A stretch of DNA of 64,000 bases from a virus (Duplodnaviria > Caudoviricetes), in the IMG/VR virus record IMGVR_UViG_3300011338_000371, positions 15,274 to 79,273 of that record, one strand, 5' to 3'. Of the stretch, positions 15,270 through 62,706 are shown one piece after another. The first letter of the stretch is position 1; each line of letters starts with the position of its first letter. The translations under genes were made by a program, and so were the position numbers. The notes under the pieces were generated by a model that ran no database searches, was not told where the DNA came from, and saw only the letters and a program-made list of their open reading frames with translations.

Positions 15270-15306
15270 CTAGTAGGAGCCTGCGAAAGTGGGCTCTTCT
15301 AGTTTT
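15270..15306 (+). terminator. GAAA-tetraloop terminator
   Basis: GAGCCTGC-GAAA-GTGGGCTC stem with G-U pairs, extended by CTAG/CTAG, then T4. Confidence 0.7.
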
Positions 15307-44687: not shown

Positions 44688-47600
44688 ATGTTTTGTCCTA
44701 ACCTATCAGATCCTACTATAAAAGCTCAGTTCGAGTCTCTTCAATCTATAGTCCCAGACTATGCTTACTATCTCTGGGATAAGTATCAAGGAGATGTTCC
44801 TGCTAAATACTACAATTTATCTAATGCAGTTATTAAAGAAGGAGTATCTGAGCTCTTTGAATCTAATTCTGAGTTAGCTAGTATAGGTACACCACAACAA
44901 TACTCTCAATACTTAGATTCTATCTTTCCTGATAGTAAAGTAAAAGATATTGTTTATCATGGTACAAAAGGAGATAAATTTGATACAATAGATTTTACTA
45001 AAAATAATTTTGGAGGAAACGTATTTTATGTAAGTACTGATAAGTCTGAGGCTGAGAGTTATGCTAGGAAGACAGGTAATGTATTAGCCTTACTTATTAA
45101 TGCAAAAAATGTTCAGTTTCAAAGAGATGCTTTTTTTGGAAATACTCCGCAAAATATTAATGAAATAAATCAAGAAATTCAGGACCTAGAGAACTTAAAA
45201 TTTGGTTTACAATTTATAGACGAAGAAATAGAAGTTAAGTTTTTTAACTCTCAGAAAGAAGCAAAAGAGTTTGCTGAAAGAAACTCTGGTTGGGAGAATT
45301 TAGAAGAAAAAGTAAAACAAGATAAACTTAAACAGTTAAAAATTTTATTAAATAATTTAACTGTAGAAGGAGAGTTTGATACTGTATTAACTAATAACGA
45401 CGCTGGAGGAAAAACTATTTACATTGTAAATAAATCAGAACAAATTCACATACTAGGAAACAAACAAGACATTGAGGGCTTTAAAAAGTTTGTATCTACT
45501 TCTGCTATGCCTACTACCATGTTCAGTAGGAAGGATGCTAAGTTTGTATCTGATAGGTTTATTCGCTTAGAAAGACAATACGACTTTGTTAGAGGCATTC
45601 AAACTAGTCCAGAATACTGGAACATGTCAATGGAAGAGAAGAAGCGTTACGTAGCTTCTAAACACTTCCAAGAAATACTTCCAGCTATTCAAGGTCTTGA
45701 CTCTGTTCGAGTAGAAGGGAACAAGATCTATCTTTCTGAGACAAAGAGAGTTAAATCTCCTGGTGCACTTTATAACTACGCAGTTAGATTAAAAGAAAAC
45801 ATCAATGCAATGTTTCCTTTGGCATACTCTAATCCTCCTGCATACGTAAGAGAGTTGTCTGATGGACAGACTTTAATTGAATTTGACTTGAATGGTAGTT
45901 ATACTATTCCTTTCCTACAAGCAGTTGAGACTCTAGAAGAAGAGTCTATGAGAACTGAAATGGAGTTGTTTGACATCCAAGAGAATCTAGGAAAAGAAAA
46001 AGCAGCTATCATGGAAAAACTCCAATCAGCAAATGAACTTTTGATTGATGGAGAAGTACTTCCTTTAAACGGATTAATGTTCCAAAAGAACTTTAGTTTA
46101 AAACAAGCACTTAAAGATCCTAAGATAAAAGCTTATGGACAGGTGTTAGATAAACTTGCTTCTAGATTCCCTGGAGTAACTTGGAAGTGGAACAACCAAA
46201 TAGCAGAGGCTGCTAGAGTTAACCTATCTACAGGAGAGATTGAAGTTAATCCTGAACTTATTCAAGAAGATACCCCTTGGCATGAATTTGGACACTTTGT
46301 AGTTAGAGGTATTAGAGAATCTAACCCTGAGTTATTTGAACAACTTAAGGCTGAGGTAAAAAGATTACACGAAGAATCCCCCACATCTTCCGCTTACTCT
46401 TTTGTAGAAGACGCTTATCCTGATTATGTAGGAAGCGAATCTTTCTGGGAAGAGGTTATTGTAACTGAGTTAGGTAGACAAGCGGCTACTAAGGCTAATA
46501 GAAGTTTGTTTGATAAAGTCTTTGATTGGTTTAAGTCTTTGCTTAGATCATTTAAAGTAGGAGTTACTCCTATTAGTAATATGTCTAATCTAGTGGAGTC
46601 TCTTGTTGATCCCTCTAACTTGTTTGAGGTGATTCCTACAAACTCTGCAATCGAAGACTATATGTTCCAACGTATAGTCCCTCAAGATCAAGTAGATGCT
46701 TTGACTCAGTATGTAGTAACTACTCCTGGTGCACAGTTTGAATTCCAAACCTATGCAGAGAAGATTCAAACAATTGCTTCAGCTATTAGTGACTCTGAGT
46801 TTAAAAAGATCTTAGATACCAATAGATTTCTTGGCTTAGGAAACGAATCCCTACAAAGATCTCTAGACGCTATTAAACAGGTAAAGAACATAGTAACAAA
46901 GGAAGATGTAGCTGCATCTGTTCTAGAGTTGTCTGACTACCTTCAATACAATTCTATCTATCTACAGGGACTGATTCGTCACTTAGACAACATCTTGAAT
47001 GATCCTAATATACCTTCAGGTAAGAAGCTAGGTGATCTTCACAGAACTTATAAGCAAGCTTTAGCTATTGAAAAGCATGTTAAGAAGATTGAGTCTTTGT
47101 TTGATACTAGTGTTCTTAAGAAAATGTATAGGGCAGAGGTTCAGAAAGACGCTTTCTTAAAGAATCTTTCTTGGATTAAAACTGCTATTAATACTATTAA
47201 AGAAGATCATGCAACTAACATACAGGCTCCTGTATTTAATGAATTAACAGATAGTTTATCTCAACAAGCAGTAGATATTGCAGCTCAGTTTGATTCTGAT
47301 ATTGCTAAACTTAAGTCTCGTACACAAACTCCTGCTATTGCGAAAAGGATTGCTGAGCTAGAAAAAGAAAAGGCAGAGAGTATTCCTACTCCTGAGAATA
47401 TTAAAAAGTTCTTAGCTGATCCTAACTCTCCTTGGTATCTTGCTTGGGAGTCAGCAATGTCTACAAAGACTCCTAGCGTACAGATTATTGCTAACTATAT
47501 TAGAGGTATTAATAACGAGTTTCAAGAGAACTTAAAGCCTATTGCAAGAGATTGGCAAGATCTTATGGATGACATTGCGGCATTAGAAGGAAGTTTCTTT

Positions 47601-50600
47601 GGTTCTGCTATGGATACTAAAAACTTCTACAAGCCTTTTATTCGAGAGACTGTACTGTATGAAGTAATAGATGGCAAACTTGTAAAAGACAAGAAAGTTA
47701 TATCCCTTAATACAAAGATTAAGACAATCGAGCTTAGAAACAGGGCTACTGAACTTAATTATCTTGTAGAGTATGGTGAGACAGAGGAGATAAGAAATAA
47801 AGCAGAAGAGGATCTTAAAAAGTTTTACGAAGAGTATACAGAGCGTCCTTTTACAGATGAGTATTATGCTATTCAAAAGCTGTTACCAGATGACGTAAAA
47901 GAAAAAAGAAATAGAATCTATCAAGAAATTGGTGCTATCAGAGAAGAGTTTGGTACTGGAGAGATAGACGAACATACAATTGAGAGGCTTAAAGAGAAAG
48001 AAAAAGAAATCTACGAGCTAGAAAGAATCTACGATGAGGCTGGAGAACTGAAGACAGGTAAAGCATACGAAGACGCTATTGCTATCCAAAAGTGGAAAGA
48101 AACAAAGAGAAATGCTGAAGTCATGAACTTTGTTCTCACTGATGATAGTAGGGCTGTATTCGAGAAGATGCTTGCTAGCAAGAAAGCAGACTTAGCAAAA
48201 GGCTTAATCACACAAGATGCTTACAATAAGTGGGCTTCAGTACATACACGTACTACCTACACACAAGAGTTCTATGACACCAGACAAATTATCTTAGATG
48301 ATATCCAACGTCTACTAAGTAGTAGGGGTTCTATGCAAGATCTCTACTCTGGTCTATTTAATCTTTTGTTAGGAACTAAGGATAGAAACGGTGTGTATGA
48401 TCCTGTACAAGTTACTGATAAACAAGTAGTTAAGGCAAAAGAACTAGAGTTACAGATTGAGGAAATCAAGTCTTTGCTTAAGCAAGATAGCCCTCTAGAC
48501 ACGGACACTAAGAATAAACTAGGTGTTCTTATTGAAAAGTTACAAGATCTACAGAGTAACGTTAACTCTGAGTATTATGAGAGTGCTGTAAGAAACCAAA
48601 AAGATTCTATTCGTACTCAAGTAACTGCAGAGAATCCAGACTTAAATACACAGTCTATAGAAAAAATAGTAGAGGCTAGATATAAGAATTCTGTTTGGTA
48701 TCAAAACAACCATATAAATAAGTTTAGATTTAATCCTGAGACTAGAGTAGTTCAGGAGGTAGTTGAGCCTTTATTTATGTGGAGAGTAACTAGACCTAAC
48801 AATCCTAAGTACATAGAAAAGGATGCACCTTCAAGTCTTTGGTATAAATCCGTAATTAGACCTGAGTTTAAAAATCCTAACTACAAACCAAAAGAAATTA
48901 CTTTTAAAGAAGTTACAGGAGGTGAGTACTACAATAGTAACTATGACAATCTTACTTCTACACAGAAACAACTGTTAGAACGTATGAGGGTCCTCCACTA
49001 CCGTAGCCAAGAGAACCTTTACCAAAAAGACAAACTAGGAGATTTGATTCCTGGAATGCGTAAGACAAAGGGTGAGTTTGTAGACTTAATAAAACTTAAA
49101 GCTAATATAGTTAAGCAATTCTTCAAGAATATCTTAAGTTACTTTAAGGGAGACAGAGACTCTTTCTCAGACGAAGACGATATCTACGGAGACGCTTATC
49201 AAACAGACGCTTTCGGAGATCCTGTAACAAGAGAATCTCGTAGACTGTTTAATCGTTATGCACGTACACTTCCTATTGAGGAACAGTCTTACGATATTAT
49301 GACTGCTATGGCTTCTTACGCTACCTCTTCTGAGAGATTTAAAGTAATGCGTAAGTACCAGTCAACAGTTCTTACTATGGAAGAAGTAATGTCGGCAGGT
49401 AAAGAAGAGTCAGGTGCTTCTAAAGTAATTGCAGATTTGATTGACAGAGAACTTTATGGCAAAGTATTAGAAGATAAAAACAACTCTGTTGCTTTAAGAG
49501 TAGGTAATAGCTTATTCTCAGGAGTAAGTAATGTTGCAGGATTCAAGACATTAGGATTTAACTTAGTGAGTCTTCCACAAAACTGGATCAGTGGTCATCT
49601 TAAAATCCTTTCTCAATTAGGATTTTATCACATTACTGCTAAAGACTTAGTAAGGGCTCATGGGGATACCTCAGGTATTAGCAAAGAGTTTTACTTAACC
49701 TATAATCAGTTTGGAGCTAAAAGTTATCGTGTATCTCTAGTAGATTATTTTACTGGTACTCAGGCATTGGCTAACCAAGCAAGTGAAATTAATAATAAAG
49801 GTCTTGCTAAATACGGTAAAGCTTGGAAAGCTGTTTCTACCCTTAGGGACTTTACTGAATTTGATATTGCTGCAGTAACTACTTATGCTTTCTTAAATAA
49901 GTATAGAGTTCCTGTAAAAGGTAGTACAGAAACAATTAGATTGAAAGACGCTTTCGAACTCAGGGATGGAGTTATCCAGCCTAAGCCTAATGTAGATGTA
50001 AGCTTCGAGTTTGTACAGAGAGTAAGAAAAGAGATCCAGTTAGCTAATGAAAGAGCACAAGGTATCTATTCGCTAGAGGCACAGCCTACTATGGCTAAAC
50101 ATGCTTGGTTTAGATCTATTATGTTCTTGAAGAAATGGGTTATTCCAGATCTTAAGTCTACTTGGGGTTCTGAGACTATTCACTATGGAGCAGGTATTAA
50201 AACTATTGGTTCTCATAGGGCTGCTTTAAACTTCTTAATGGACACAGTTTACTTTGACAAAGGTAGAATGTATAATACCTGGAAGTATAGTTCTGACACA
50301 CAAAAAGCAGGCTTAAAACAGTTTGCCGTTCAGTTAGCTACCTACACAGTATTAGCAAACTTAATTGTACAGATGTCATTAGCTTTAAATTGTGAAGAGG
50401 ATGCTGAATCAGATTGGAAAGACTATGTGTGTTTAGGTGCAAAGAGAACAGCTAACGAAGCAGAAGGAGTATTTACTCTATGGGGCTTAAACGAAATGAT
50501 GTTTACTTATGTAGCTGAGCAAGCAAACGGTGTATCTATCTTTGAAAAAATAGGTTGGGCTGCTATGGGACCCTTTAGTGTTTGGAGAAAGTTTGTTACA

Positions 50601-51137
50601 GACGGTGATCTCTATTCTACAGATCCTTACTATAAGTATCGCCCTAACTCTAACAAGGTAGATTGGGATAGAACACATCCTATGCAAGCAGGTGAGATGG
50701 GGTTAGCTGTATTGGGTATGGAGTTCTTAGGACTAAAAGGAACTTTTATTGGACCCAAATCAGTAGAGTTCCAAAACAGAGCATTCAATGACTACGCTCC
50801 TAAGACTTATACTAAAGAACTAAGAACTAGATATAAGAAAGATCACGAAGGATTAGAGGTCATGCCTACTAGAACTCGCTTAGCTCAAGAAAGAAAGGTG
50901 TTTAAAAAACAACTTAAGGAGATCCAAGAAGAGACTGCTAAGTATATTTCTAGAGGGGAAAGAGTACCTGAAAGCTTAAACAACAAACTTAAAACTTTGA
51001 GAGAGAACTATAAGAAAAGAATAGAAGGAATCAAGGCAGGTAACATAGATGAATCAAGTCCTATTGCTTATCCGTTTATGAACTTACTCGGTGACAGAAG
51101 AGGATTAGATGTTACTCCTGAGCCTCAAGAAGAATAA
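44688..51137 (+). CDS. Large polyvalent cargo protein (ADP-ribosyltransferase-like module plus zincin metallopeptidase)
   Basis: 2149 aa; VYHGT...FYVSTDKSEAESYA at about 44952-45065; DTPWHEFGH (HEFGH at 46281-46295) followed by EEVIVTELG; long helical remainder. Confidence 0.7.
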   Translation: MFCPNLSDPTIKAQFESLQSIVPDYAYYLWDKYQGDVPAKYYNLSNAVIKEGVSELFESNSELASIGTPQQYSQYLDSIFPDSKVKDIVYHGTKGDKFDTIDFTKNNFGGNVFYVSTDKSEAESYARKTGNVLALLINAKNVQFQRDAFFGNTPQNINEINQEIQDLENLKFGLQFIDEEIEVKFFNSQKEAKEFAERNSGWENLEEKVKQDKLKQLKILLNNLTVEGEFDTVLTNNDAGGKTIYIVNKSEQIHILGNKQDIEGFKKFVSTSAMPTTMFSRKDAKFVSDRFIRLERQYDFVRGIQTSPEYWNMSMEEKKRYVASKHFQEILPAIQGLDSVRVEGNKIYLSETKRVKSPGALYNYAVRLKENINAMFPLAYSNPPAYVRELSDGQTLIEFDLNGSYTIPFLQAVETLEEESMRTEMELFDIQENLGKEKAAIMEKLQSANELLIDGEVLPLNGLMFQKNFSLKQALKDPKIKAYGQVLDKLASRFPGVTWKWNNQIAEAARVNLSTGEIEVNPELIQEDTPWHEFGHFVVRGIRESNPELFEQLKAEVKRLHEESPTSSAYSFVEDAYPDYVGSESFWEEVIVTELGRQAATKANRSLFDKVFDWFKSLLRSFKVGVTPISNMSNLVESLVDPSNLFEVIPTNSAIEDYMFQRIVPQDQVDALTQYVVTTPGAQFEFQTYAEKIQTIASAISDSEFKKILDTNRFLGLGNESLQRSLDAIKQVKNIVTKEDVAASVLELSDYLQYNSIYLQGLIRHLDNILNDPNIPSGKKLGDLHRTYKQALAIEKHVKKIESLFDTSVLKKMYRAEVQKDAFLKNLSWIKTAINTIKEDHATNIQAPVFNELTDSLSQQAVDIAAQFDSDIAKLKSRTQTPAIAKRIAELEKEKAESIPTPENIKKFLADPNSPWYLAWESAMSTKTPSVQIIANYIRGINNEFQENLKPIARDWQDLMDDIAALEGSFFGSAMDTKNFYKPFIRETVLYEVIDGKLVKDKKVISLNTKIKTIELRNRATELNYLVEYGETEEIRNKAEEDLKKFYEEYTERPFTDEYYAIQKLLPDDVKEKRNRIYQEIGAIREEFGTGEIDEHTIERLKEKEKEIYELERIYDEAGELKTGKAYEDAIAIQKWKETKRNAEVMNFVLTDDSRAVFEKMLASKKADLAKGLITQDAYNKWASVHTRTTYTQEFYDTRQIILDDIQRLLSSRGSMQDLYSGLFNLLLGTKDRNGVYDPVQVTDKQVVKAKELELQIEEIKSLLKQDSPLDTDTKNKLGVLIEKLQDLQSNVNSEYYESAVRNQKDSIRTQVTAENPDLNTQSIEKIVEARYKNSVWYQNNHINKFRFNPETRVVQEVVEPLFMWRVTRPNNPKYIEKDAPSSLWYKSVIRPEFKNPNYKPKEITFKEVTGGEYYNSNYDNLTSTQKQLLERMRVLHYRSQENLYQKDKLGDLIPGMRKTKGEFVDLIKLKANIVKQFFKNILSYFKGDRDSFSDEDDIYGDAYQTDAFGDPVTRESRRLFNRYARTLPIEEQSYDIMTAMASYATSSERFKVMRKYQSTVLTMEEVMSAGKEESGASKVIADLIDRELYGKVLEDKNNSVALRVGNSLFSGVSNVAGFKTLGFNLVSLPQNWISGHLKILSQLGFYHITAKDLVRAHGDTSGISKEFYLTYNQFGAKSYRVSLVDYFTGTQALANQASEINNKGLAKYGKAWKAVSTLRDFTEFDIAAVTTYAFLNKYRVPVKGSTETIRLKDAFELRDGVIQPKPNVDVSFEFVQRVRKEIQLANERAQGIYSLEAQPTMAKHAWFRSIMFLKKWVIPDLKSTWGSETIHYGAGIKTIGSHRAALNFLMDTVYFDKGRMYNTWKYSSDTQKAGLKQFAVQLATYTVLANLIVQMSLALNCEEDAESDWKDYVCLGAKRTANEAEGVFTLWGLNEMMFTYVAEQANGVSIFEKIGWAAMGPFSVWRKFVTDGDLYSTDPYYKYRPNSNKVDWDRTHPMQAGEMGLAVLGMEFLGLKGTFIGPKSVEFQNRAFNDYAPKTYTKELRTRYKKDHEGLEVMPTRTRLAQERKVFKKQLKEIQEETAKYISRGERVPESLNNKLKTLRENYKKRIEGIKAGNIDESSPIAYPFMNLLGDRRGLDVTPEPQEE

Positions 51138-51138
51138 C

Positions 51139-51168
51139 TTGACTTATTTTTTTAATAGTTTACTTTTG
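51139..51168 (+). promoter_or_regulatory. Bacteroidota-type promoter for the fibre operon
   Basis: TTG 51139-51141, 19-nt spacer, TACTTTTG 51161-51168. Confidence 0.75.
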
Positions 51169-51240
51169 TACTACGGGCCTAAAAAGCCGAGTACTTAAGT
51201 ACTGTAACGATAATTAAACTAAATTAAACTAAATATAATT

Positions 51241-51561
51241 ATGGAAAATAATGATTTGCTTAAAGAGCAGGCCAAACGTCTAAGACAGATTGCTTCTAAC
51301 ACAGAAGAACCCCAAGACGTATCTAGAAGTATCGCCCTTACAGGGTCTCTTACTGCTCTTCCTTCCGAGTGTTGCAAGTTTGTAACTTTAATGAACACTA
51401 CGGGAACTACTGTAAGCTTTACAGTAAACAATTCCATGTCTGGAACTTCAGGAGCTACAGTTGTTTTACCAAACAACTCAGGAGTAAGTATAGATACCCC
51501 TAATACAGTAAACGTAAAAGTACTAGGTACTGGAACTCTGTATTACATTGTATCTCAATAA
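51241..51561 (+). CDS. Small beta-rich protein, probably fibre-associated
   Basis: 106 aa, first gene after the promoter at 51139. Confidence 0.6.
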   Translation: MENNDLLKEQAKRLRQIASNTEEPQDVSRSIALTGSLTALPSECCKFVTLMNTTGTTVSFTVNNSMSGTSGATVVLPNNSGVSIDTPNTVNVKVLGTGTLYYIVSQ

Positions 51562-51607: not shown

Positions 51608-53503
51608 ATGGCTCGTATAGGAAAATTTTTCTTTTTTGATGGCTCAGAAAACTTAGCCACTGTCTTCTATTATCATGTAAGATCTAATGGAGGAGTAGTA
51701 GAATCTATAGGCTGCGTAGATAATACGTCTAGCTTTTTAGAACAATCTTCTTTTCTCTTATCTCCAAGTGGATACAAAGAAGACACAGTATACACACAGA
51801 AACCTATAGGAGCAACAGGTAACTTAACTTTTACCAGAGGATCAGATTCTTGGAGAACTAACGTACAAGGTCTTGTAGAAAGGACTCCATACAATTTGTT
51901 GCAGAGAAGTGAAGAGTTTGACAATGGGATTTGGACAAAAACGGGCTGCACAATATCTACTAATGTAACATCTGCACCTAATGGAACAACGACTGCGGAC
52001 AAATTAGTTTCTACAAATTTGGCAACGGGTTCTTCTGTATATCAACAAGGTACAATCATAGCAAACGCATCATACACTTTTTCTATTTATGTAAAAGCAA
52101 GTGGGGCGAATTGGATTCAATTGATTGCAACGGGTACAACTATATCTTCACCCGCTCGGTTGTGGGTTGACCTTTCTAATGGTGCATTAGGCACTAATAA
52201 TGGAGGGTTTTCCATAGCAAGTGTAACTAATGTGGGGGATGGTTGGTATAGAGTGATTGGGGCGTTTACGACGGCATCAACTGCAACATTCTCAAATTTG
52301 TTTTGTGCATTAGCAACGGGAGATAATATCAATGCATTTAGTGGCGATGGAACTTCGGGAGTATTCATTTGGGGTGCCCAATTAGTAGAGGGCGCTTATC
52401 CTTTAGAGTACTTCCCTACTACAGATAGACTTGATGTACCTAGAATAGATTACTCTTATGGTACTTGTCCTGCTTTACTGTTAGAACCGCAGAGGACGAA
52501 TTTGTGTTTGTATTCAAGTGCGGTAGGCGGTACGGGATGGACGATAATTTCTGCGGGCACTGGGGTATCCCCGACAGTAACTACAAATTATGCGGTTTCA
52601 CCCGATGGAACAATGAGCGCTTCAAGGCTTCAATTATCATTGAATGGTGGGACAACGACATTAGACCAATCATTAGTAACTCAAACTCTTACGGGGACAT
52701 CTTGCCGTGGTTCTTTTTACATTAAAACAAATGATGGCTCTACAAAAACAATTTATGTTCGTGGAAGTTCTGCGTATAGTATTGTAATTGACGGAACTTG
52801 GAAACGATATGATTTTGATGCGGCAACTCTATCTACAACGCAATTTGGTATCGGTCTTCGTGGAGGTCAAACGCCAACGAATAGTAACACCGCAGATATT
52901 TTAGTTTGGGGCGCACAACTTGAAGCAGGCGCTTATCCTAGTTCTTATATCAGAACAGAAGCAACCACAGTAACTCGCTTAGCTGATTCTTTCTCTCGTA
53001 ATAACATATATACTAATAACCTTATAACTTCTGCAGGAGGAACTTGGTACGTAGAGTTGAGGGGAAATTTGAGTTTAACGCAAGCTACAAGTGAGCAAGG
53101 AATTTCGTTGGGGGATAATTCTGTTCAATTTTTAGGCAATCAACTTCAAATACGCTCATTAGGTGGTAATGCAAGGCTTACTGTAGGTATAAGAATATCT
53201 GGTTCATATTTTTCATTATATGCTACAACAAGCGACACGGTGAAACTTGCATTCAAATGGAACGGAAGCACCGCAGATGTGTTTGTTAATGGTACAAAGG
53301 TTGTTACGGCAACTTCATTTACGGCAACTGCTTTAGAGTTTTTGACAGCAACTGCCACAGGCGTTCCAAAATACATCCAAGGAATGGCTTTATATCCTGT
53401 CCCATTAGATGATGTAGACTGTGAGTTGCTTACTAATCCTACCTCTAGTGGATACAGTTCTTTTGCTTCAATGGCTTCTAGCTTAGGATACATATTAATC
53501 TAA
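51608..53503 (+). CDS. Fibre/spike protein, paralogue A (two CBM-like modules plus ConA/LamG-like C-terminus)
   Basis: 631 aa; NLLQRSEEF, DGWYRV, IWGAQLVEG, LLLEPQRTNL, WGAQLEAGAYPSSYI, KWNG...VFVNG motifs shared with paralogues B and C. Confidence 0.75.
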   Translation: MARIGKFFFFDGSENLATVFYYHVRSNGGVVESIGCVDNTSSFLEQSSFLLSPSGYKEDTVYTQKPIGATGNLTFTRGSDSWRTNVQGLVERTPYNLLQRSEEFDNGIWTKTGCTISTNVTSAPNGTTTADKLVSTNLATGSSVYQQGTIIANASYTFSIYVKASGANWIQLIATGTTISSPARLWVDLSNGALGTNNGGFSIASVTNVGDGWYRVIGAFTTASTATFSNLFCALATGDNINAFSGDGTSGVFIWGAQLVEGAYPLEYFPTTDRLDVPRIDYSYGTCPALLLEPQRTNLCLYSSAVGGTGWTIISAGTGVSPTVTTNYAVSPDGTMSASRLQLSLNGGTTTLDQSLVTQTLTGTSCRGSFYIKTNDGSTKTIYVRGSSAYSIVIDGTWKRYDFDAATLSTTQFGIGLRGGQTPTNSNTADILVWGAQLEAGAYPSSYIRTEATTVTRLADSFSRNNIYTNNLITSAGGTWYVELRGNLSLTQATSEQGISLGDNSVQFLGNQLQIRSLGGNARLTVGIRISGSYFSLYATTSDTVKLAFKWNGSTADVFVNGTKVVTATSFTATALEFLTATATGVPKYIQGMALYPVPLDDVDCELLTNPTSSGYSSFASMASSLGYILI

Positions 53504-53532
53504 ACAAACTATTAAACTTAAATTTAAATTAG

Positions 53533-55347
53533 ATGGCTACCCCAACACTTATATTAGGAGCAAATAACTGGGCAATAGAAGAAGATAACATTCTAGGATA
53601 TGCCTTAGGACCTTCTTCTAAACAATACTTACCTAGAGAGATCTCATTTACTAGGGGATCAGATGCTACATATACTGACTCTACAGGAGTAATTAGGCAA
53701 GCATGCTGGAACTTGTTGCAGTATAGTGAAGATCTTACAAATGGAGTTTGGGGTAAGCAAAATACAACAATAACTGCCAACAGTACAAATGCACCAGACA
53801 GTGCACTAACTGCTGACCAGATGTTCGATGATACATCATTAAACTGGCATCGCATTATATATACTACTTCAGTAATTAGCGGAAATGCATATACATACTC
53901 TATATATCTAAAAGCAAATACGGAGACGGCTGTTCAATTAAACAGCTACAATATATATGCTTCAAATTCATTTAACTACGCTAATTTTGACTTACAAAAC
54001 GGAGTTGTTGGGACATATGCAAATTGTACACCATCAATAACAAATATAGGTAATGGATGGTATAGATGTTCTATAACACAAACAAGCGTTGTTAGTGGAA
54101 CCTCTTATCTATATATAACAACTACAAATAATAATCCTTTATCATCAGATAGGCCGACTTACGCAGGTGCTGGCAATTCTTTTTATATTTGGGGCGCTCA
54201 GTTAGTTCAAGGATCAGATGCTCTTGGGTATCTCAGAACAACCGACAGATTGAACATGCCTAGAGTTGACAGTTCCACTGGAACAAAAGCGTTCTTGCTT
54301 GAGCCTCAGAGAACGAATTTGTGCCTACAATCGGAAAGTTTTGACAATGCGAGTTGGACAAAGGATAGTAGTGCAACGGTGACGGCAAACACAACAACTG
54401 CCCCCGATGGCAATACAACTGCCGACACCATCAATCTTGCGGCCGTAGCAAATTCACGAATAAATCAAGTAATAAATATTAACAATTCAACTACTTACAC
54501 AGTAAGTGGATATTTTAAAAATATAGCATTAGCATCGGGGGAAAATATATCATTAATCTATGGTAATACAAATTCCTGGGGTCCTCCGAATAATTTTACT
54601 GCAACTGCCTCTATTGATTTATTCAATGGAACTGCAACTTATTCACTTACGGGGACATCGGGAACGGGGTTTTCGGGTAGTGCAAGTGGTTCAATTCAAA
54701 ATGTTGGCAATGGTTGGTATAGAGTTTCATTGACATTTACAACGGGAACTGCCGCTGCCACAGGTGGAGTATTTAGATTAATTAGTTCAACTGTCGCAAG
54801 TGCGAGGTTGTTTTATGCTTGGGGAATGCAGATGGAATTAGGAGCCTACCCTACCACCTATGTTCCAACTACATCAACAACTGTTACAAGGATTGGTGAC
54901 ACATTTAGTAAATCAAACATCTATACTAATCGGTACATTGGGCAAAATGGTGGTACTTGGTTAGTTGAGTTGAGAAATAATATCAGTTATGTGAGAGATA
55001 ATACGATTGGTATTTTTATAGGTGACACAACAGGCTCAAATTCAGGAAACCAATTTATTATACGAGCGACATCGAGCGGAAGATTGGCAATTTTCAAATG
55101 TATCTCATCTGTACCAACACAAATTTTTGGAACATCAACTGACACGATTAAATTTGCCATTAAATGGAACGGAACAAGTGCTGATTTATTTGTAAACGGA
55201 ACAAAAGAAGTAAGTGCAACATCATTCACAACTACCGCAATGGAAAACTTAATTGGGGGTTGTGGATCACCAATGTTAATCCAACAAATAAAACTATATT
55301 CAGAGCCATTAAGTGACGCTGAATGCATTGAAATAACTACTTTATAA
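53533..55347 (+). CDS. Fibre/spike protein, paralogue B
   Basis: 604 aa; same motif series (NLLQYSE, NGWYRC, IWGAQLVQG, LLEPQRTNL, WGMQMELGAYPTTY, KWNG). Confidence 0.75.
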   Translation: MATPTLILGANNWAIEEDNILGYALGPSSKQYLPREISFTRGSDATYTDSTGVIRQACWNLLQYSEDLTNGVWGKQNTTITANSTNAPDSALTADQMFDDTSLNWHRIIYTTSVISGNAYTYSIYLKANTETAVQLNSYNIYASNSFNYANFDLQNGVVGTYANCTPSITNIGNGWYRCSITQTSVVSGTSYLYITTTNNNPLSSDRPTYAGAGNSFYIWGAQLVQGSDALGYLRTTDRLNMPRVDSSTGTKAFLLEPQRTNLCLQSESFDNASWTKDSSATVTANTTTAPDGNTTADTINLAAVANSRINQVININNSTTYTVSGYFKNIALASGENISLIYGNTNSWGPPNNFTATASIDLFNGTATYSLTGTSGTGFSGSASGSIQNVGNGWYRVSLTFTTGTAAATGGVFRLISSTVASARLFYAWGMQMELGAYPTTYVPTTSTTVTRIGDTFSKSNIYTNRYIGQNGGTWLVELRNNISYVRDNTIGIFIGDTTGSNSGNQFIIRATSSGRLAIFKCISSVPTQIFGTSTDTIKFAIKWNGTSADLFVNGTKEVSATSFTTTAMENLIGGCGSPMLIQQIKLYSEPLSDAECIEITTL

Positions 55348-55417
55348 ACTTAAATCTAAATTTAATTAAATTTAATTACAAAATATAAACTTTAAACTTT
55401 AAATAATAAAACAAGCT

Positions 55418-57166
55418 ATGTCATACGCTAAAATATTTCCCTTAGGTTCTCTTGGTTCAGTAGTAAATACAGGAGTACTTCAAATTCAAGGAGGGGTCTA
55501 CCTAGATAGTACCCTTAGAATTCTTACTGATCAATTAAACACCCCATCAGTATTAAGACTCTCTACTACATCAGTAACAAACTATGGAGGAGGAGCTATT
55601 CCTACCAACACAGCTTTTGGTGATCAAGCGTTATTGAGCAACACCTCTGGATCTAATAACCTATCTTTAGGTTATAGGGCTTTGAGGGCGAATACTTCAG
55701 GGACACAGAACGTAGCTGTGGGGGTGGATGCGTTGTTGAGTAATACGACTGCGAGTAATAACGTAGCGGTAGGTTATCAAGCTGCAAATAGCAACACCTC
55801 AGGCTTAGGTATAACGGCTGTTGGTAGTTCAGCGTTGACGTCAAATACTACAGGTAATAACAATGTAGCAGTTGGTCTATCTGCATTGGCAGCGAACACA
55901 ACAGGAGGGAATAATACAGCAGTAGGGGAACGTGCAATGGGTAATTTAATTACAGGTGGTAATAATACTGGTATTGGTTCTAATGCTTTAAGAAACAATA
56001 TAGGAGGTTTTTTTAATGTCGCATTAGGTGATTCTGCTTTACGAAATAACACCGCAAGTAACAATACCGCTGTAGGTTTTGAAGCCGCTTTAACCAACAC
56101 AAGCGGAGTAGGTATTACTGCTATAGGTTATCAGGCGTTGAGGGCAAGTACTGGTAATAATAATACTGCGTTAGGTTTTCAAAGTTTATTAACAAATACT
56201 ACAGGTGCTAGTAACGTTGCTATTGGTGCATTGGCTTTACAATTAACAAGTACTGCTAGTAGCAACGTTGCTATTGGTGTATCTGCTTTATTTAATAATA
56301 CCGCTTCCAACAATACCGCCGTTGGAACAAGTGCAGCCCAAGCCAACACCTCTGGCACAGGCATAACAGCAATAGGGTATCAGGCGTTGACTGCGAGTAC
56401 GGGTAGTAATAATACGGCGTTAGGGTTTCAGGCGGGTGTAGCTGTAACTACTGGAGCAAGTAATACTTTTATTGGTAACTTATCGGGTAATACAACTACA
56501 GGAGGTTTATCAAACGTATTAGTTGGTTCTTCTTCAAGAATGGCAGGGATAGTTAACAGTTCAGGAGTTGGTATTGGTAGTGATATTGTTGCAGGAGATT
56601 CAAGTGCAACAATTGGTTCTGCTTCTCAATCTACAACAAGTTGTGTAGTTATAGGTAGACAAGCTGTATCGGCTTTTTCAGCGTCTGTTGTTATTGGTCG
56701 TGAGGCAACAGCAACAGCCGCTAACCAATTTGTAGTAGGATCAGCAGCGTATAACGCAGGAGCAGTAACAGCAGAAACAAACACTACTATTTCTTCTTGG
56801 GCTGTTAAGATTAACGGAACAGATAGAAAACTTCTCTTATTGGATACTGCTCAGAACGTAATTGATGTTAAGCAAAGTGTTGCTGCCTCTACTTCTACTA
56901 CTACAGTAAACTGGGCTAATGGAAACCTAGCGGATATTACGCTTACTTCTAGTACTACTTTAACTTTAAGCGCTCCAGTAATAGGAACCTACATAGTAAA
57001 GTTAACCCAAGGAGGAGCAGGAAGCTTCACAGTAACTTGGCCTGCTACAGTAAAATGGTCAGGAGGTATTGCCCCTGTATTGACTACTACTGCAGGTAAG
57101 ATAGATATGATTACTTTGTTATGGGATGGAACCTCTTACTATGGTTCTTATGCTCTTAACTTTTAA
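55418..57166 (+). CDS. Tail fibre with NTAVG-type beta-roll repeats
   Basis: 582 aa; many NxA[VL]Gxx[AS]LxxNTxG repeats; C-terminal TVNWANGN...VKWSGG domain. Confidence 0.75.
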   Translation: MSYAKIFPLGSLGSVVNTGVLQIQGGVYLDSTLRILTDQLNTPSVLRLSTTSVTNYGGGAIPTNTAFGDQALLSNTSGSNNLSLGYRALRANTSGTQNVAVGVDALLSNTTASNNVAVGYQAANSNTSGLGITAVGSSALTSNTTGNNNVAVGLSALAANTTGGNNTAVGERAMGNLITGGNNTGIGSNALRNNIGGFFNVALGDSALRNNTASNNTAVGFEAALTNTSGVGITAIGYQALRASTGNNNTALGFQSLLTNTTGASNVAIGALALQLTSTASSNVAIGVSALFNNTASNNTAVGTSAAQANTSGTGITAIGYQALTASTGSNNTALGFQAGVAVTTGASNTFIGNLSGNTTTGGLSNVLVGSSSRMAGIVNSSGVGIGSDIVAGDSSATIGSASQSTTSCVVIGRQAVSAFSASVVIGREATATAANQFVVGSAAYNAGAVTAETNTTISSWAVKINGTDRKLLLLDTAQNVIDVKQSVAASTSTTTVNWANGNLADITLTSSTTLTLSAPVIGTYIVKLTQGGAGSFTVTWPATVKWSGGIAPVLTTTAGKIDMITLLWDGTSYYGSYALNF

Positions 57167-57196
57167 TTTTTAACTTTTAACTTAAAATAAAACACA

Positions 57197-59080
57197 ATGT
57201 TCAACGGTCCAGTATTTCTTAACGAAACTATACAAGCTAATGCGAGAGCAGTAAATGCAGGAGGCATATCAGAAAGTTTAGATGAGGCAAACGCTTTATA
57301 TTCTCGCTTATCAGGAGCTTCATTTAAGTTAGTACCTTCTTCTTTTGGAAGAGGAGTTCTTTACTCAGGAGCTCCGGGAGTAAACGGGGATTTGACTTGG
57401 ACTCGTGGAGGTGATGCGTTTAGAACAAATGCAAGTGGGTTGATTCAGCGAGTGCCGTGGAATTTGTTGCAACAAAGTGAAACTTTTGAGAATGCGGTAT
57501 GGACAAAATCAGCCACAACATTAACTGCAAATACAACCGTAGCACCAAACGGCACTACAACTGCGGACACATTAATTGAAAATACTGCCAATTCAACGCA
57601 TCAAATTTTTCAAAGCATTACAAATGTCAATGGGGCAACTCCTTATACTGTGATGATTTATGTGAAGCAAAACGCCAGTCGTAATGTAGCAATTCGCATT
57701 CAAGATGGGGCGTTCACTTACGGGCAAGTAATAGTCACTTACAACTTAAATACTGGTGCATTAATTAGTCAAAATGCAACGGGTAACGGAGTTGTTGTTA
57801 GCACATCCGCAACATTGACAAACGGATACTATTTGATTGCGGTATCATTTAGCATAAATTTAAGCACATCATTTAGATATGATGTTTTGATGGTCAACGG
57901 AACTTCCAATAGTTATACGGGAGATGGAACAAGTAGCATTGTCATTTGGGGCGCACAACTTGTAGAAGGCACAACCGCCCAAACATACCTACCAACAACC
58001 GACCGATTAAACTTTCCCCGTCTATCCTATATGTACGGCAGTTGTCCGAGTGCGTTGCTTGAACCGCAGAGGACGAATTTGGTTTTACGAAGTGAGGAAT
58101 TTGATAATTCATATTGGGCAAAAGCAGCAATAAGCGTAACGGGTAACAATACTACCGCCCCAGATGGCGCAAATACGGCTGATTTAATTATCGAGAATTC
58201 TTCAAGTGCAGCACATGCAATTACAAGAGGTTCACTTGCGCTTGGTAGTGCAACATATACTTGCACTATCTATGCGAAAGCCAAAGAAAGAAGTAGAATT
58301 TTGTTATATGCGGGTGGTGCAACAGCAGGAGGTTATGGATTTGATTTAATTAATGGAATGGCAAATGCAGTTACTGGCATTACTGCCCCATCATCGTTTA
58401 GTATACAAAGTGTAGGCAATGGGTGGTATAGATGTTCGATTACAATCACGAGTACAACATTCACTTTTTTTGAAGCATATTTGTTGTCTTCATTTTCGGG
58501 ATTTAGTTATCAAGGAGACGGAGTAAGTGGTCTTTATCTTTGGGGCGCACAACTTGAAGCGGGCGCATACCCCACCACCTACATACCAACTACATCAGCC
58601 ACCGCCACCCGTGTTGCAGATTCTTTCAGCCGAAATAACATCTACACCAATGGTTTGATTAGTGCGAGTGGGGGAACTTGGTTTGTTGAGTTGCGGGGGA
58701 ATGTTAGTTTGCCACGCTCTACCTCAAATGGAGGTATAGCAATAAATACTTCAAGCGATTATATTTTGGGCAATGGTTTTGTTATTCGCAGTGTATCAAC
58801 GGGCGGAAGTCAACTAACAATTCAAAAGGTAATCGCAGACACACCATCAACACTTTATACCATAACTGCAACTACTGCAAAAATCGCCATCAAATGGAAT
58901 GGAACAAGTTGCGATGTATTTGTAAATGGCACAAAGGAAGTATCTGCGTCATCTTTTGCAATAACCGCAATGGAAAATATTAATGGTAATGGGGCAAATG
59001 TTACTATGTTCATCCAACAAATGGCACTTTTCCCAACAGCCCTTTCCGATACTGATTGTGCGGCTATTACGAGTTTATAA
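57197..59080 (+). CDS. Fibre/spike protein, paralogue C
   Basis: 627 aa; same motif series as paralogues A and B. Confidence 0.75.
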   Translation: MFNGPVFLNETIQANARAVNAGGISESLDEANALYSRLSGASFKLVPSSFGRGVLYSGAPGVNGDLTWTRGGDAFRTNASGLIQRVPWNLLQQSETFENAVWTKSATTLTANTTVAPNGTTTADTLIENTANSTHQIFQSITNVNGATPYTVMIYVKQNASRNVAIRIQDGAFTYGQVIVTYNLNTGALISQNATGNGVVVSTSATLTNGYYLIAVSFSINLSTSFRYDVLMVNGTSNSYTGDGTSSIVIWGAQLVEGTTAQTYLPTTDRLNFPRLSYMYGSCPSALLEPQRTNLVLRSEEFDNSYWAKAAISVTGNNTTAPDGANTADLIIENSSSAAHAITRGSLALGSATYTCTIYAKAKERSRILLYAGGATAGGYGFDLINGMANAVTGITAPSSFSIQSVGNGWYRCSITITSTTFTFFEAYLLSSFSGFSYQGDGVSGLYLWGAQLEAGAYPTTYIPTTSATATRVADSFSRNNIYTNGLISASGGTWFVELRGNVSLPRSTSNGGIAINTSSDYILGNGFVIRSVSTGGSQLTIQKVIADTPSTLYTITATTAKIAIKWNGTSCDVFVNGTKEVSASSFAITAMENINGNGANVTMFIQQMALFPTALSDTDCAAITSL

Positions 59081-59818
59081 ATGGCAGTAGTATACGCACA
59101 TATGAAAAAAGATAGTAGAGAAATCTACTACATTGGCATCGGAAACAATGTTAAAAGAGCGTATCATACTGGTTCTAGAAGTGAATTATGGAAAAGACAC
59201 TATAGAAAATATGGTTTAATTGTGGACATACTTTGTAGCGATATAGATATTTCGACAGCCAAGGAAGTAGAAAAATTTCTTATTGCACAATACGGAAAAA
59301 AACAATTATGTAATAGAACTGATGGTGGTGAAGGATTCTTTGGGGGTAAACATACGGAAGAAACAAAACAAAAGATTAGTGAAATGAAAAGAGGTAGGAA
59401 ACCAAATAAGGAAACACTAATTAAAATGTCAATAGCATCTAAAGGACACAAAAGAAGGCCAGCGGGTTCGTGGACACAAAGCGAAGATGCAAAGCGTAAA
59501 ATAGGAGATGCTTTTAAAGGAAAGAAGAGAAGTGAATACTTTTGTCAAAGAGCAAAGGAAGGAAAAATTGGATACAAGCCAGCAAAATCCACATTGGATG
59601 CATCAGCTAAAGTAAGAAAAGAGAAAGCCTGCCTAATACAGGAAATAACTACAGGGTTTATAGGTAAGCCTTGGGAAGTTTGTGATAAATTCAACATAAA
59701 CAGAAGCGAGCTATACAAAAAATGTAAAACTAATAAGCCGTATATATCTGGAAGAAACAAGGGGTTATGCTTTAAGAAAATAAACCAAACTAGATTAACT
59801 TTAACAAAATTAAACTAA
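59081..59818 (+). CDS. GIY-YIG homing endonuclease with NUMOD3-like repeats
   Basis: VVYAH...IYYIGIG...R, later E and CNRTDGGEG; KHTEETKQKISEMKRG-type repeats. Confidence 0.85.
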   Translation: MAVVYAHMKKDSREIYYIGIGNNVKRAYHTGSRSELWKRHYRKYGLIVDILCSDIDISTAKEVEKFLIAQYGKKQLCNRTDGGEGFFGGKHTEETKQKISEMKRGRKPNKETLIKMSIASKGHKRRPAGSWTQSEDAKRKIGDAFKGKKRSEYFCQRAKEGKIGYKPAKSTLDASAKVRKEKACLIQEITTGFIGKPWEVCDKFNINRSELYKKCKTNKPYISGRNKGLCFKKINQTRLTLTKLN

Positions 59819-60372: not shown

Positions 60373-60789
60373 ATGAAAACTTCCTTCTTCCTATATTCTA
60401 CTACTACTGTGTTGGCATTTTTGGGGACTTACTTTTTTAACTTAGGGGCTGACAACGTAGAACAGTATTTAGCCTTGGTTGCTGTCGTTTTTATTGATGG
60501 ATTCTTTGGAGTATGGGCAGGTACTAAAAAGGAAGGTTTCCAAACTAGGAAAGCTCTTAAGGTTCTTAAGACACTTTTCTCTTGGGTATTAATACTTACG
60601 GGTGTTTTAATGATTGAGAAGGGTTTTGATGGCACATTCTGGCTAAGCGAAACTTTCTGTGCTCCTTTTATTGTGTTTCAAATAATAAGTGCCCTTAAGA
60701 ACGCTCACACAGTGGGGGTAATAAACAATAGTGTATTGTCAGAGATTCTAGAAAGAATAGATCAGCATAAGTTTGACCACAATAAATGA
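60373..60789 (+). CDS. Holin (Phage_holin_4_1 / TcdE-like)
   Basis: 138 aa with 3-4 hydrophobic segments; VFIDGFFGVWAG and FQIISALKN motifs. Confidence 0.8.
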   Translation: MKTSFFLYSTTTVLAFLGTYFFNLGADNVEQYLALVAVVFIDGFFGVWAGTKKEGFQTRKALKVLKTLFSWVLILTGVLMIEKGFDGTFWLSETFCAPFIVFQIISALKNAHTVGVINNSVLSEILERIDQHKFDHNK

Positions 60790-61383: not shown

Positions 61384-62706
61384 ATGATGCCAATCTCTAA
61401 ACAGATTATCCGTCACTACATGGATAATCCAAACACAACCGAGACAGCTGTTGAAGTTGCTATCCGATTTAACTTTCATCCTGAACTTAGTAACGAGTTA
61501 AGAGGTAAGAGAGTTCGTGATTTAAAAAGAACAGCAGTAGCCAAACTAGTACGAGAAGACGCTTACCCAGATATTTCTCAATCTTCTTCCGATACTATAG
61601 GAACTTATAACGAGAATCTAGAAAAAGGTACCCTAGAAGTATCTAAGATAGTTTCTGAACAACCTAGATCTCCTGAAGAAATAATAAAAATCCACAAAGT
61701 AGACACTACTAAGTGGAAACTAGTTCAATACTGGAGTAAGGAAAAGAGTTCAGGCTGGTTAGTATCAGCTTTGTTTGCTCACGTCAAACCTGAAGATACT
61801 TTTAATGACGACATAGAAAGCATTCTAAGAGAAGTTTTCCTAGAATCTGGTATCGACATATACCCAACACCTAAAAAGTCTCCTGTAAGCGTTAAAAGAG
61901 GCTTATTTGTGTATATGAGTGACAAACACGTAGGTGCGCTTACACATCCTACTGCTCTTTACGGAAACGAGTATAACGAAAATGTCTTCGAAGAGAGAAT
62001 GAACAAGACATTAGAGGAGATAGAAAGACAAGTTAAAACCTACGGAAGACTAGAAGACTTATTTATTTGTGACTTAGGTGATTCTTTAGATGGTTGGAAC
62101 GGCTATACTACTAGAGGAGGCCATCAGTTACCTCAAAACATGGACAATAAGGAAGCTTTTATGACTTACCTTTATGCTCATAAGAGGTTTTTTGATACTT
62201 TAGTAGAAAGGAATTTAGCTAATAACATTCATGCAGTAATGCAGACAAATGATAACCACGCTGGCGATTATGGATACGTAACCAATCAAGCGCTTAATCT
62301 TTATCTTAACACAGCTTATCCATTCATTAAAGTAACAATAATGGAGAAGTTCTTAGAACATTTTGACTATGGTAAACATACATTTATTTTTACTCACGGA
62401 AAAGACGCTGAGGATCTTAAACATGGTCTTCCCCTTTTCTTAAACGAGAAAGCAGAAAATTTCCTTAACAAGTACATAGACCACCACAAGTTAGGAGAGA
62501 ATAAAAATATCTCAGTGGTAAAAGGAGACCTACATACTGAGAGTATGCAACAAGCCTATAAGTTTAGATACAGAAATGTTTTGTCAATGTATGGCTCTTC
62601 TAAGTGGATTATGAACAACTTTGGTCCAGGATATCCAGGAGTTTCTTTTGATTTAGTAGAAAAAGATACGGATTTAATTTATTCGTTTTATATTCGCTTT
62701 AAGTAA
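61384..62706 (+). CDS. Calcineurin-like metallophosphoesterase
   Basis: SDKHVG, DLGDSLDG, NDNHAG, FTHG and GDLH motifs. Confidence 0.8.
   Translation: MMPISKQIIRHYMDNPNTTETAVEVAIRFNFHPELSNELRGKRVRDLKRTAVAKLVREDAYPDISQSSSDTIGTYNENLEKGTLEVSKIVSEQPRSPEEIIKIHKVDTTKWKLVQYWSKEKSSGWLVSALFAHVKPEDTFNDDIESILREVFLESGIDIYPTPKKSPVSVKRGLFVYMSDKHVGALTHPTALYGNEYNENVFEERMNKTLEEIERQVKTYGRLEDLFICDLGDSLDGWNGYTTRGGHQLPQNMDNKEAFMTYLYAHKRFFDTLVERNLANNIHAVMQTNDNHAGDYGYVTNQALNLYLNTAYPFIKVTIMEKFLEHFDYGKHTFIFTHGKDAEDLKHGLPLFLNEKAENFLNKYIDHHKLGENKNISVVKGDLHTESMQQAYKFRYRNVLSMYGSSKWIMNNFGPGYPGVSFDLVEKDTDLIYSFYIRFK

Follow-up and report, generated by a model that had tools for sequence, protein, structure and literature searches.

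Lectin-like cassettes in three paralogous fibre genes of a crAss-like phage are probably replaced by homologous recombination among related phages

Three paralogous fibre genes with a shared layout

We analysed three paralogous fibre genes, A, B and C, in a 64,000-nucleotide (nt) stretch of viral DNA, referred to throughout as the window, which was cut from a 79-kb IMG/VR virus record that is about 67% complete (IMGVR_UViG_3300011338_000371, positions 15,274 to 79,273). Each gene encodes two lectin-like modules whose interiors vary between conserved motifs, and these interiors probably move as cassettes between related phages. On the basis of matches to Crass_capsid, the crAss-type major capsid protein (E 7.9e-27 at window positions 6948–8477), and to crAss_MUZ, the muzzle protein (E 4.6e-27 at 17367–22316), the window is assigned to an uncultured crAss-like phage (Crassvirales), of which it is a part. 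The three genes are as follows.

51608–53503, + strand: gene A, 631 amino acids (aa); N-terminal part, two GTA_spike_fiber domains and a concanavalin A (ConA)-like C-terminal domain; match to PHROG tail protein 5939
53533–55347, + strand: gene B, 604 aa; layout as in gene A
57197–59080, + strand: gene C, 627 aa; layout as in genes A and B

The encoded proteins are 38–43% identical in pairs. In all three, module 1 is bounded by NLLQxSE and WGAQLV and module 2 by LLEPQRTNL and WGAQLE-GAYP, the last reading WGMQMELGAYP in B. An initial annotation of the window had described these motifs and a ConA-like end as a scaffold common to A, B and C, which our alignments confirmed, the C-terminal domain being conserved. 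We refer to the positions of the two modules as slots 1 and 2, to the sequence between the edge motifs as the cassette interior, and to two DNA sequences shared exactly by A and C as box 1 and box 2. The parts of the three genes are listed below; G001 is a related contig and P0005 and similar labels denote homologous proteins, all described further on.

51893–51913, + strand: slot-1 start motif NLLQRSE of A
52370–52384, + strand: slot-1 end motif WGAQL of A, spelled differently from the box
52484–52504, + strand: box 1 in A, encoding EPQRTNL where slot 2 begins; exact 21-mer GAACCGCAGAGGACGAATTTG
52505–52906, + strand: slot-2 cassette interior of A, replaced relative to G001
52905–52926, + strand: box 2 in A, encoding (V)WGAQLEA where slot 2 ends; exact 22-mer TTTGGGGCGCACAACTTGAAGC
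53021–53500, + strand: C-terminal ConA-like domain of A, from alignment and the model of its homologue in C
54301–54321, + strand: EPQRTNL copy in B, with three synonymous changes relative to box 1 (18/21)
54820–54834, + strand: WGMQM in B, a variant of the WGAQL end motif
57461–57481, + strand: slot-1 start motif NLLQQSE of C, where identity to G001 gene c falls
57482–57946, + strand: slot-1 cassette interior of C, compared with G001 gene c and with P0005, P0006, P0010 and P0013
57945–57962, + strand: first 18 nt of TTTGGGGCGCACAACTTGAAGC inside C, coding for WGAQL at the end of slot 1
57945–58081, + strand: linker scaffold of C, from the 18-nt WGAQL box (57945–57962) to box 1
58061–58081, + strand: box 1 in C, codons of EPQRTNL; exact 21-mer GAACCGCAGAGGACGAATTTG
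58082–58540, + strand: slot-2 cassette interior of C, compared with G001 gene c and P0048
58539–58560, + strand: box 2 in C; exact 22-mer TTTGGGGCGCACAACTTGAAGC
58539–58705, + strand: box 2 and conserved post-domain scaffold of C
58706–59077, + strand: C-terminal ConA-like domain of C, whose middle (58706–59008) is a third diverged block

The modules are tandem lectin-like domains

Modules 1 and 2 repeat, in tandem, a single known lectin-like domain, a β-sandwich resembling carbohydrate-binding modules (CBMs). The NCBIfam family NF048003 (GTA_spike_fiber, 'phage head spike fibre domain'), which has a curated cut-off of 36 bits, matched two stretches in each protein with scores of 209 (A), 237 (B) and 237 (C) bits and E-values of 1e-62 to 1e-70 (6e-62 for A). 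With phmmer, residues 270–477 of protein C aligned to residues 64–275 of Rcc01080 from the gene transfer agent RcGTA (6tb9_F3; E 1.1e-33), and the alignment includes TNL at its start and WGAQLEAGA at its end. No Pfam family exceeded its cut-off for A, B or C, the best being CBM_4_9 at E 0.04.

The AlphaFold (AF2) model of protein C, with a predicted local distance difference test (pLDDT) score of 79.6, comprises three β-domains (residues 90–260, 290–458 and 490–627) joined by floppy linkers. Since the root mean square deviation (rmsd) of whole-model, multi-domain Foldseek comparisons (17–20 Å) is meaningless, per-domain VIA results were used in its place. The top structural matches of the slot-1 domain of C were baseplate proteins of phages Pa193 (Z 23.6) and E217 (Z 21.4, rmsd 2.3 over 182 residues), and the domain also superposed on CBM4, CBM16, CBM22 and CBM61 modules at Z of about 13; Foldseek returned a match to a tandem CBM22 at E 1.5e-8. 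Modelled alone, the C-terminal domain of C reached a pLDDT of 88.9, and its top 40 or so matches were all ConA-like (CBM40, pentraxin, BoNT Hc-N, galectin and LG), with Z of about 8–10.2 and rmsd 2.8–3.0 over about 130 of 141 residues, moderate Z-scores that indicate a match at the level of fold only. Structure prediction and Foldseek comparison, which had been proposed as a check, thus found both CBM-like modules and a ConA-like C-terminal domain. Given these folds and the RcGTA homologue, the cassettes may bind host surface glycans, and swapping them may alter host range. The earlier description of the units as glycan-binding modules is upheld for the carbohydrate-binding-module fold, through the CBM matches, but not for binding itself, which is suggested by the fold and by the RcGTA homologue.

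The boxes are edges of protein-constrained segments

The exact boxes described in the initial annotation were all found, as was the 18/21 copy at 54301, and dinucleotide shuffles of the window yielded no box match. Every box is in frame and lies on an invariant peptide motif. EPQRTNL, encoded by box 1, is the first conserved motif of the domain and the counterpart of NLLQxSE in slot 1; WGAQLE, encoded by box 2, is its last β-strand. To estimate chance, codons were resampled without altering the proteins. A single exact run of 21 nt or more arose in 11–13% of trials, and two such runs in 0.3–0.8%. Between the paralogues, synonymous-codon identity at identical residues is 0.41–0.47 and codon usage alone predicts 0.40–0.42, so that the paralogues are saturated at synonymous sites.

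Three of the six WGAQL sites in A, B and C (A1, B1 and B2) are spelled otherwise at the DNA level (WGAQL/WGMQM). Among relatives that were unselected on the box in question, EPQRTNL took nine spellings in 11 copies, none of them exact; for WGAQLE, the exact spelling was seen in 1 of 10 and 0 of 5 copies. Family-wide, WGAQ is most often spelled TGGGGCGCACAA. Elsewhere in IMG/VR, the exact boxes occur in 25 and 22 contigs, and every one of these is a homologue. At the protein level, E289, P290, Q291, R292, T293 and N294 are invariant across 93 sequences, as are Q254 and Q452 of the two WGAQL motifs, with W251, G252 and L255 conserved in at least 90%. Because the exact spellings vary among relatives, the conservation of the boxes is imposed on the protein and does not mark fixed DNA sites. 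The boxes form the borders of conserved segments, 135–165 nt long and 91–93% identical between partners, that are constrained at the protein level.

Codon-level comparison with a relative locates the replaced blocks

A scan for the exact boxes identified G001, a 29.6-kb relative whose genes run big protein, a, b, c, d. Gene a resembles A, gene c resembles C, and gene d represents a fourth paralogue. Gene b is 64% identical to gene D of the window, which lies between B and C and is unrelated to the three paralogues:

55418–57166, + strand: gene D, 582 aa; repeat-rich fibre or spike, with matches to PHROG tail spike 4636 and tail fibre 9017

We compared A with a and C with c block by block, scoring synonymous-codon identity, for which the random expectation in this comparison is 0.40.

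A against a, N-terminus and first domain (D1), 51608–52366: 97–98% nt identity; synonymous-codon identity 0.94–0.97
A against a, slot-2 interior with long indels, 52505–52906: 24% aa identity; 0.45
A against a, post-domain segment from the GAQLE codons, 52907–53062: 92% nt identity; 0.85
C against c, N-terminus up to NLLQxSE, 57197–57481: 92% nt identity; 0.84
C against c, slot-1 interior, 57482–57946: 32% aa identity; 0.33
C against c, linker, 57947–58081: 93% nt identity; 0.95
C against c, slot-2 interior, 58082–58540: 29% aa identity; 0.33
C against c, post-domain segment, 58541–58705: 91% nt identity; 0.81
C against c, middle of the C-terminal domain, 58706–59008: 37% aa identity; 0.51
C against c, last 22 codons, 59009–59074: 88% nt identity; 0.88

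In gene A, identity to G001 collapses right after EPQRTNL (52504) and returns at box 2 (52907); in gene C, the switch points lie at about 57482, 57947, 58081 and 58541. The interiors differ from those of G001 by long indels. Because near-identical synonymous sites adjoin saturated ones within the same gene pair, the pattern indicates replacement by recombination and not point mutation under selection.

Several further features of the two loci were apparent. The third diverged block (58706–59008 in C and 53063–53371 in A) lies in the middle of the ConA-like domain, with GGTW(F/Y)VELR at its left edge and KFIQQMAL(F/Y)P at its right edge; the proteins may carry three exchangeable units instead of two. 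The block borders do not track gene borders, because a single block at window 56696–57510, 89% identical to G001, runs from the 3' end of gene D into the 5' end of gene C; the remainder of gene D is 67–80% identical at the nt level. G001 has no gene B between a and its D-like gene, and gene d, which follows gene c (L081:2763–4502, − strand), encodes a single domain that can be recognised and a C-terminus resembling that of B (50% identity), so that the number and order of genes in the fibre cluster vary between relatives. The ends of the proteins vary as well: protein A has a private 22-residue tail (NPTSSGYSSFASMASSLGYILI, 53435–53500), other family members ending at ...LT(T/S)L, and protein c of G001 has a different tail of about 36 residues (L081:4512–4620, − strand).

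Cassettes and scaffold have separate histories across the family

The wider family is very large, with more than 7,400 proteins at E <1e-10 among 8,000 candidates scored. A related-locus search with protein C gave relatives of 29–43% identity, and a search with P0040, which did not return P0040 itself, added 80 loci. Two independent pairs of loci, L004/L007 and L009/L018, showed the same block pattern at the DNA level. In 20 more IMG/VR cassette pairs, some of which share a contig or its near-duplicate, blocks with identities in the nineties (per cent) switch at the motifs to identities in the thirties to fifties. When we mapped breakpoints, 16 right-hand ends fell exactly at the L of EPQRTNL and nine right-hand ends fell 3–8 residues past the W of WGAQL, the pairs behind both counts not being independent. 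On the left, breakpoints at the protein level are blurred because the linker and the pre-domain junction are conserved throughout the family.

Across 120 homologues, identities to protein C in the N-terminus, D1, linker, second domain (D2) and C-terminus were uncoupled, as three examples illustrate.

P0005 against C: N-terminus 52%, D1 93%, linker 93%, D2 39%, C-terminus 58%
P0007 against C: N-terminus 88%, D1 41%, linker 100%, D2 49%, C-terminus 63%
P0037 against C: N-terminus 93%, D1 31%, linker 75%, D2 41%, C-terminus 58%

The slot-1 cassette of C recurs at 90–93% identity in P0005, P0006, P0010 and P0013, the N-termini of which are only 42–52% identical to that of C. P0048 is without slot 1, and its sole cassette is 67–68% identical to the slot-2 cassette of C. 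Likewise, the slot-2 cassette of A is 90% identical to that of P0095, with the remainder of P0095 only 39–40% identical to A. Module and scaffold trees, whose congruence the initial annotation had named as the outcome contrary to exchange, were strongly incongruent by approximately unbiased (AU) tests. The set of proteins sharing the slot-1 cassette of C formed a 98% clade in the slot-1 tree, but the slot-2 tree rejected its monophyly (p-AU 1.9e-26), and the set sharing the N-terminus of C was rejected in the slot-1 tree (AU p 7.7e-46).

Cassettes also occur in both slots. In the pairs P0097/P0118, P0040/P0117 and P0086/P0104, which like the mosaics P0005 and P0010 were compared as protein alignments only, a cassette in slot 1 of one protein is 94–97% identical to a cassette in slot 2 of another. 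Identity begins at NL or up to about five residues after it, and ends at GAQ or GAQL. Because the flanks of these cassettes share only the edge motifs, the crossovers that moved them between slots must have used very short homology. The number of domain copies per protein ranges from one to four.

Together, the codon-level breakpoints and the tree incongruence bear out the earlier suggestion of exchangeable cassettes for exchange between phages. Swapping within a phage, which had been proposed alongside it, has no support, cassettes of the same genome being at most 44% identical. The proposal that the boxes act as recombination anchors needs dividing in the same way: breakpoints do fall at the boxes in relatives, but the boxes are not special DNA sites, as their spellings are not kept. 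The interpretation given in the initial annotation was thus largely right between phages and unproven within a phage, and its view of what the boxes are needs correcting.

Proposed mechanism and alternatives

We consider it likely that the cassettes are replaced by ordinary homologous recombination among related phages, with crossovers in the conserved scaffold. The recombination is presumably general and homology-driven. A, B and C would be paralogous virion-surface adhesins, each with a variable N-terminal attachment part, two lectin-like slots and a ConA-like end, in which the (EPQRT)NLxxSE and WGAQL(E/V) motifs, the linker and the post-domain junction form a scaffold kept by structural constraint. 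The interiors of about 150 residues would be the cassettes, repeatedly replaced in the population of related phages, with co-infecting related phages or prophages as recombination partners. Most crossovers would occur in the conserved scaffold segments of 135–165 nt, where partners are about 91–93% identical and of which the boxes are the edges. Rarer crossovers inside the codons of the edge motifs would let cassettes change slot and domain number change. Each phage would in this way come to carry up to six different sugar-binding cassettes in a combination of its own.

A number of points weigh against this account or limit it. Where identity falls sharply at a motif, homology ends, but the crossover need not lie there. 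The exact identity of the boxes between A and C is a modest excess over codon chance, and most relatives spell them differently. The cross-slot pairs rest on protein alignments and not on DNA. All relatives are metagenome contigs, and the recombination events are undated, none having been observed directly. For sugar binding, the basis is the fold together with the capsule dependence of the RcGTA homologue (PMC10218006).

In a stronger form of this proposal, the codons of the edge motifs would be kept similar across genes, slots and phages as universal sockets, with a homing endonuclease perhaps supplying the breaks. We regard this extension as unlikely. If it were true, any cassette would fit any slot of any paralogue through short-homology recombination, and crAss-like phages would have a built-in, enzyme-light system for diversifying host range. 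The endonuclease in question is encoded directly downstream of gene C:

59081–59818, + strand: free-standing GIY-YIG/NUMOD3 homing endonuclease gene, starting one base after the gene C stop; PHROG 314 at E 4e-14, NUMOD3 over the Pfam cut-off

Lying beside gene C, this enzyme might be a local source of double-strand breaks or gene conversion. Homing co-converts flanking markers in T-even phages, and a dedicated machine could be built around such an enzyme, with repair copying neighbouring cassettes, or around a site-specific recombinase that recognises the boxes. The position of the gene and its absence from every relative locus that we fetched, as expected of a mobile gene, would both suit the endonuclease version. 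We nevertheless think a dedicated machine improbable, more so than the universal sockets: the mosaic pattern is also present in many relatives that do not have this endonuclease, no serine or tyrosine recombinase was found in the record, and the boxes are direct repeats of variable spelling. The initial annotation had proposed a system that needs no reverse transcriptase or invertase, and our searches of the 79-kb record (about 67% complete) agree with it: they found no RVT_1 reverse transcriptase, no serine resolvase or invertase and no tyrosine recombinase or integrase. Three known kinds of diversification system were considered and rejected. A diversity-generating retroelement would involve a reverse transcriptase with a template repeat near the variable gene, and adenine-specific changes; no reverse transcriptase was found, and the interiors instead have long indels and saturated synonymous sites. 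An invertible segment or shufflon of the Gin, Cin or Rci kind does not fit because no recombinase was found and all boxes are direct repeats on the + strand whose spelling varies. A silent-cassette archive like pilS or vls was set aside because no further domain copies occur in any frame of the window.

Exchange could also take place within one phage, the boxes of A and C then being footprints or anchors of gene conversion or unequal crossing-over between paralogues. The rarity of two exact runs of at least 21 nt in codon-resampled gene sets favours this explanation, and unequal crossing-over of direct repeats predicts the one-domain and four-domain relatives that are found. However, identity between A and C extends not one codon past the boxes on either side, synonymous-codon identity between the two genes is 0.45 overall against the expected 0.40–0.42, and none of the same-genome cassette pairs among 161 fibre open reading frames (ORFs) from the fetched IMG/VR loci exceeded 44% identity. 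The simple codon null is also too strict, because TGGGGCGCACAA is the favoured WGAQ spelling. Recent exchange within a phage is thus unsupported, given the low identity of same-genome cassettes and the fact that A and C share nothing past the boxes, and we give within-phage exchange as a whole a low probability, on a par with that of the universal sockets.

Two explanations do without exchange of any kind, and we judge both to be very improbable. Vertical divergence, with diversifying selection or hypermutation like that of diversity-generating retroelements acting on the interiors and purifying selection on the scaffold, would leave conserved edges and variable interiors if surface loops were under selection, and would suit interiors that Pfam barely recognises. 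It does not account for a single gene pair in which synonymous sites are near-identical in the scaffold and saturated in the interiors, for the long indels between interiors, for one cassette that recurs, at 90–97% identity, both in unrelated scaffolds and in the alternative slot, or for the rejection of congruence by AU tests, and no reverse transcriptase was found in the record, which is about 67% complete. Assembly chimeras, in which short-read assemblers jump between co-occurring strains in the conserved scaffold, have to be weighed because metagenome assemblies are the source of all the data and assembly graphs typically tangle in conserved segments of 135–165 nt. Against this, the partners come from separate samples and archives (JGI, ENA, Logan and NCBI), and the scaffold of the studied pair differs by 7–9%, too much for graph collapse. 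The shared blocks are 88–98% identical and not 100%, indicating that they diverged after exchange. Homologous recombination among related phages remains our preferred account of the mosaics.

Relation to known systems and implications

The closest known system is gp38 of T-even phages, in which hypervariable segments alternate with glycine-rich conserved motifs and exchange points lie in or near the motifs (PMC3157838); this shuffling is attributed to Tetart et al. 1998 as cited in Trojet et al. 2011 (PMC3157838). Both systems have variable specificity segments split by short, strictly conserved motifs of the structural core, both have chimera exchange points in or near those motifs (natural and laboratory chimeras for gp38, sequence mosaics here), and both would yield new combinations for host recognition without a dedicated enzyme. 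The protein and the fold are unrelated, however, the fold here being a CBM-like sandwich. The unit exchanged here is the whole interior of a β-sandwich, about 150 residues, compared with a gp38 loop of 10–30 residues. In addition, each protein offers two equivalent slots, each phage has three paralogues, and cassettes move between slots. The gp38 family was not among the Pfam or PHROG matches of A, B and C, which are not members of it, because both fold and sequence differ.

By sequence, the nearest relative is the RcGTA head spike fibre, which binds cells more as capsular polysaccharide increases (PMC10218006). Rcc01080 (PDB 6TB9) is a direct sequence homologue with the edge motifs TNL...WGAQLEAGA, but it contains the domain once and is carried on a gene transfer agent capsid, whereas A, B and C have two domains and a ConA-like end and map to the tail or cargo region of a crAss-like genome; in the literature consulted, we found no description of cassette exchange for the gene transfer agent protein. 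The best structural matches to slot 1 of C, Pa193 gp46 (9B45) and E217 gp45 (8ENV), are about 20% identical to it (sequence E 1e-11). They differ in that they belong to myovirus baseplates, contain the domain only once and are not known to form a multi-slot family. On a broader scale, Smug et al. (bioRxiv 10.1101/2022.12.27.521992) found recent domain mosaicism to be concentrated in receptor-binding proteins, tail fibres and spikes and to cross taxonomic borders. The mosaicism of A, B and C is consistent with that pattern. Their study covers cultured phage genomes and domain classes, and does not describe a family of the NF048003 type, two slots or motif-bounded breakpoints.

The principle that recombination at conserved motifs swaps adhesin specificity is established, and A, B and C are a well-documented and very large new example of it. 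What is new is the protein family, the whole-domain cassette, the two slots and three paralogues, the movement between slots and the crAss-like setting. The locus points to a likely seat of adhesin specificity in environmental crAss-like phages, with six CBM-like cassettes per phage. The motif-bounded units offer natural boundaries for classifying the family cassette by cassette, for matching cassettes to host glycans and for expressing single cassettes in binding tests.

Surroundings of the fibre cluster

No close cultured relative was apparent: blastn of the fibre locus against 50,697 phage records returned just three matches, all short (76–85 nt), and the tblastn matches of the locus, to RcapMu, Nonlabens, Rhizobium and cyanophages, were at most 36% identical. 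Upstream of the fibre genes, a 2149-aa protein (window 44688–51137) carries an ART-PolyVal domain at residues 88–254. It is only 24% identical to its G001 counterpart (L081:10720–15999), although gene A, which follows it, is 97–98% identical at the nt level over its first 760 nt. This contrast exemplifies the movement of cassettes as units between quite different phages; the window phage and G001 are patchworks of very different ages.

A 106-aa ORF without a family match (window 51241–51561, + strand) separates the 2149-aa gene from gene A, and positions 51138–51304, at its 5' region, are 79–80% identical at the nt level in the viral contigs L027 and L043. The cluster is followed by genes for a Phage_holin_4_1 holin and for a 440-aa protein with a match to a PHROG exonuclease family (E 3e-13), at 60373–60789 (+ strand) and 61384–62706 (+ strand), and so borders on the lysis genes and on a gene that may act in recombination or as a nuclease.

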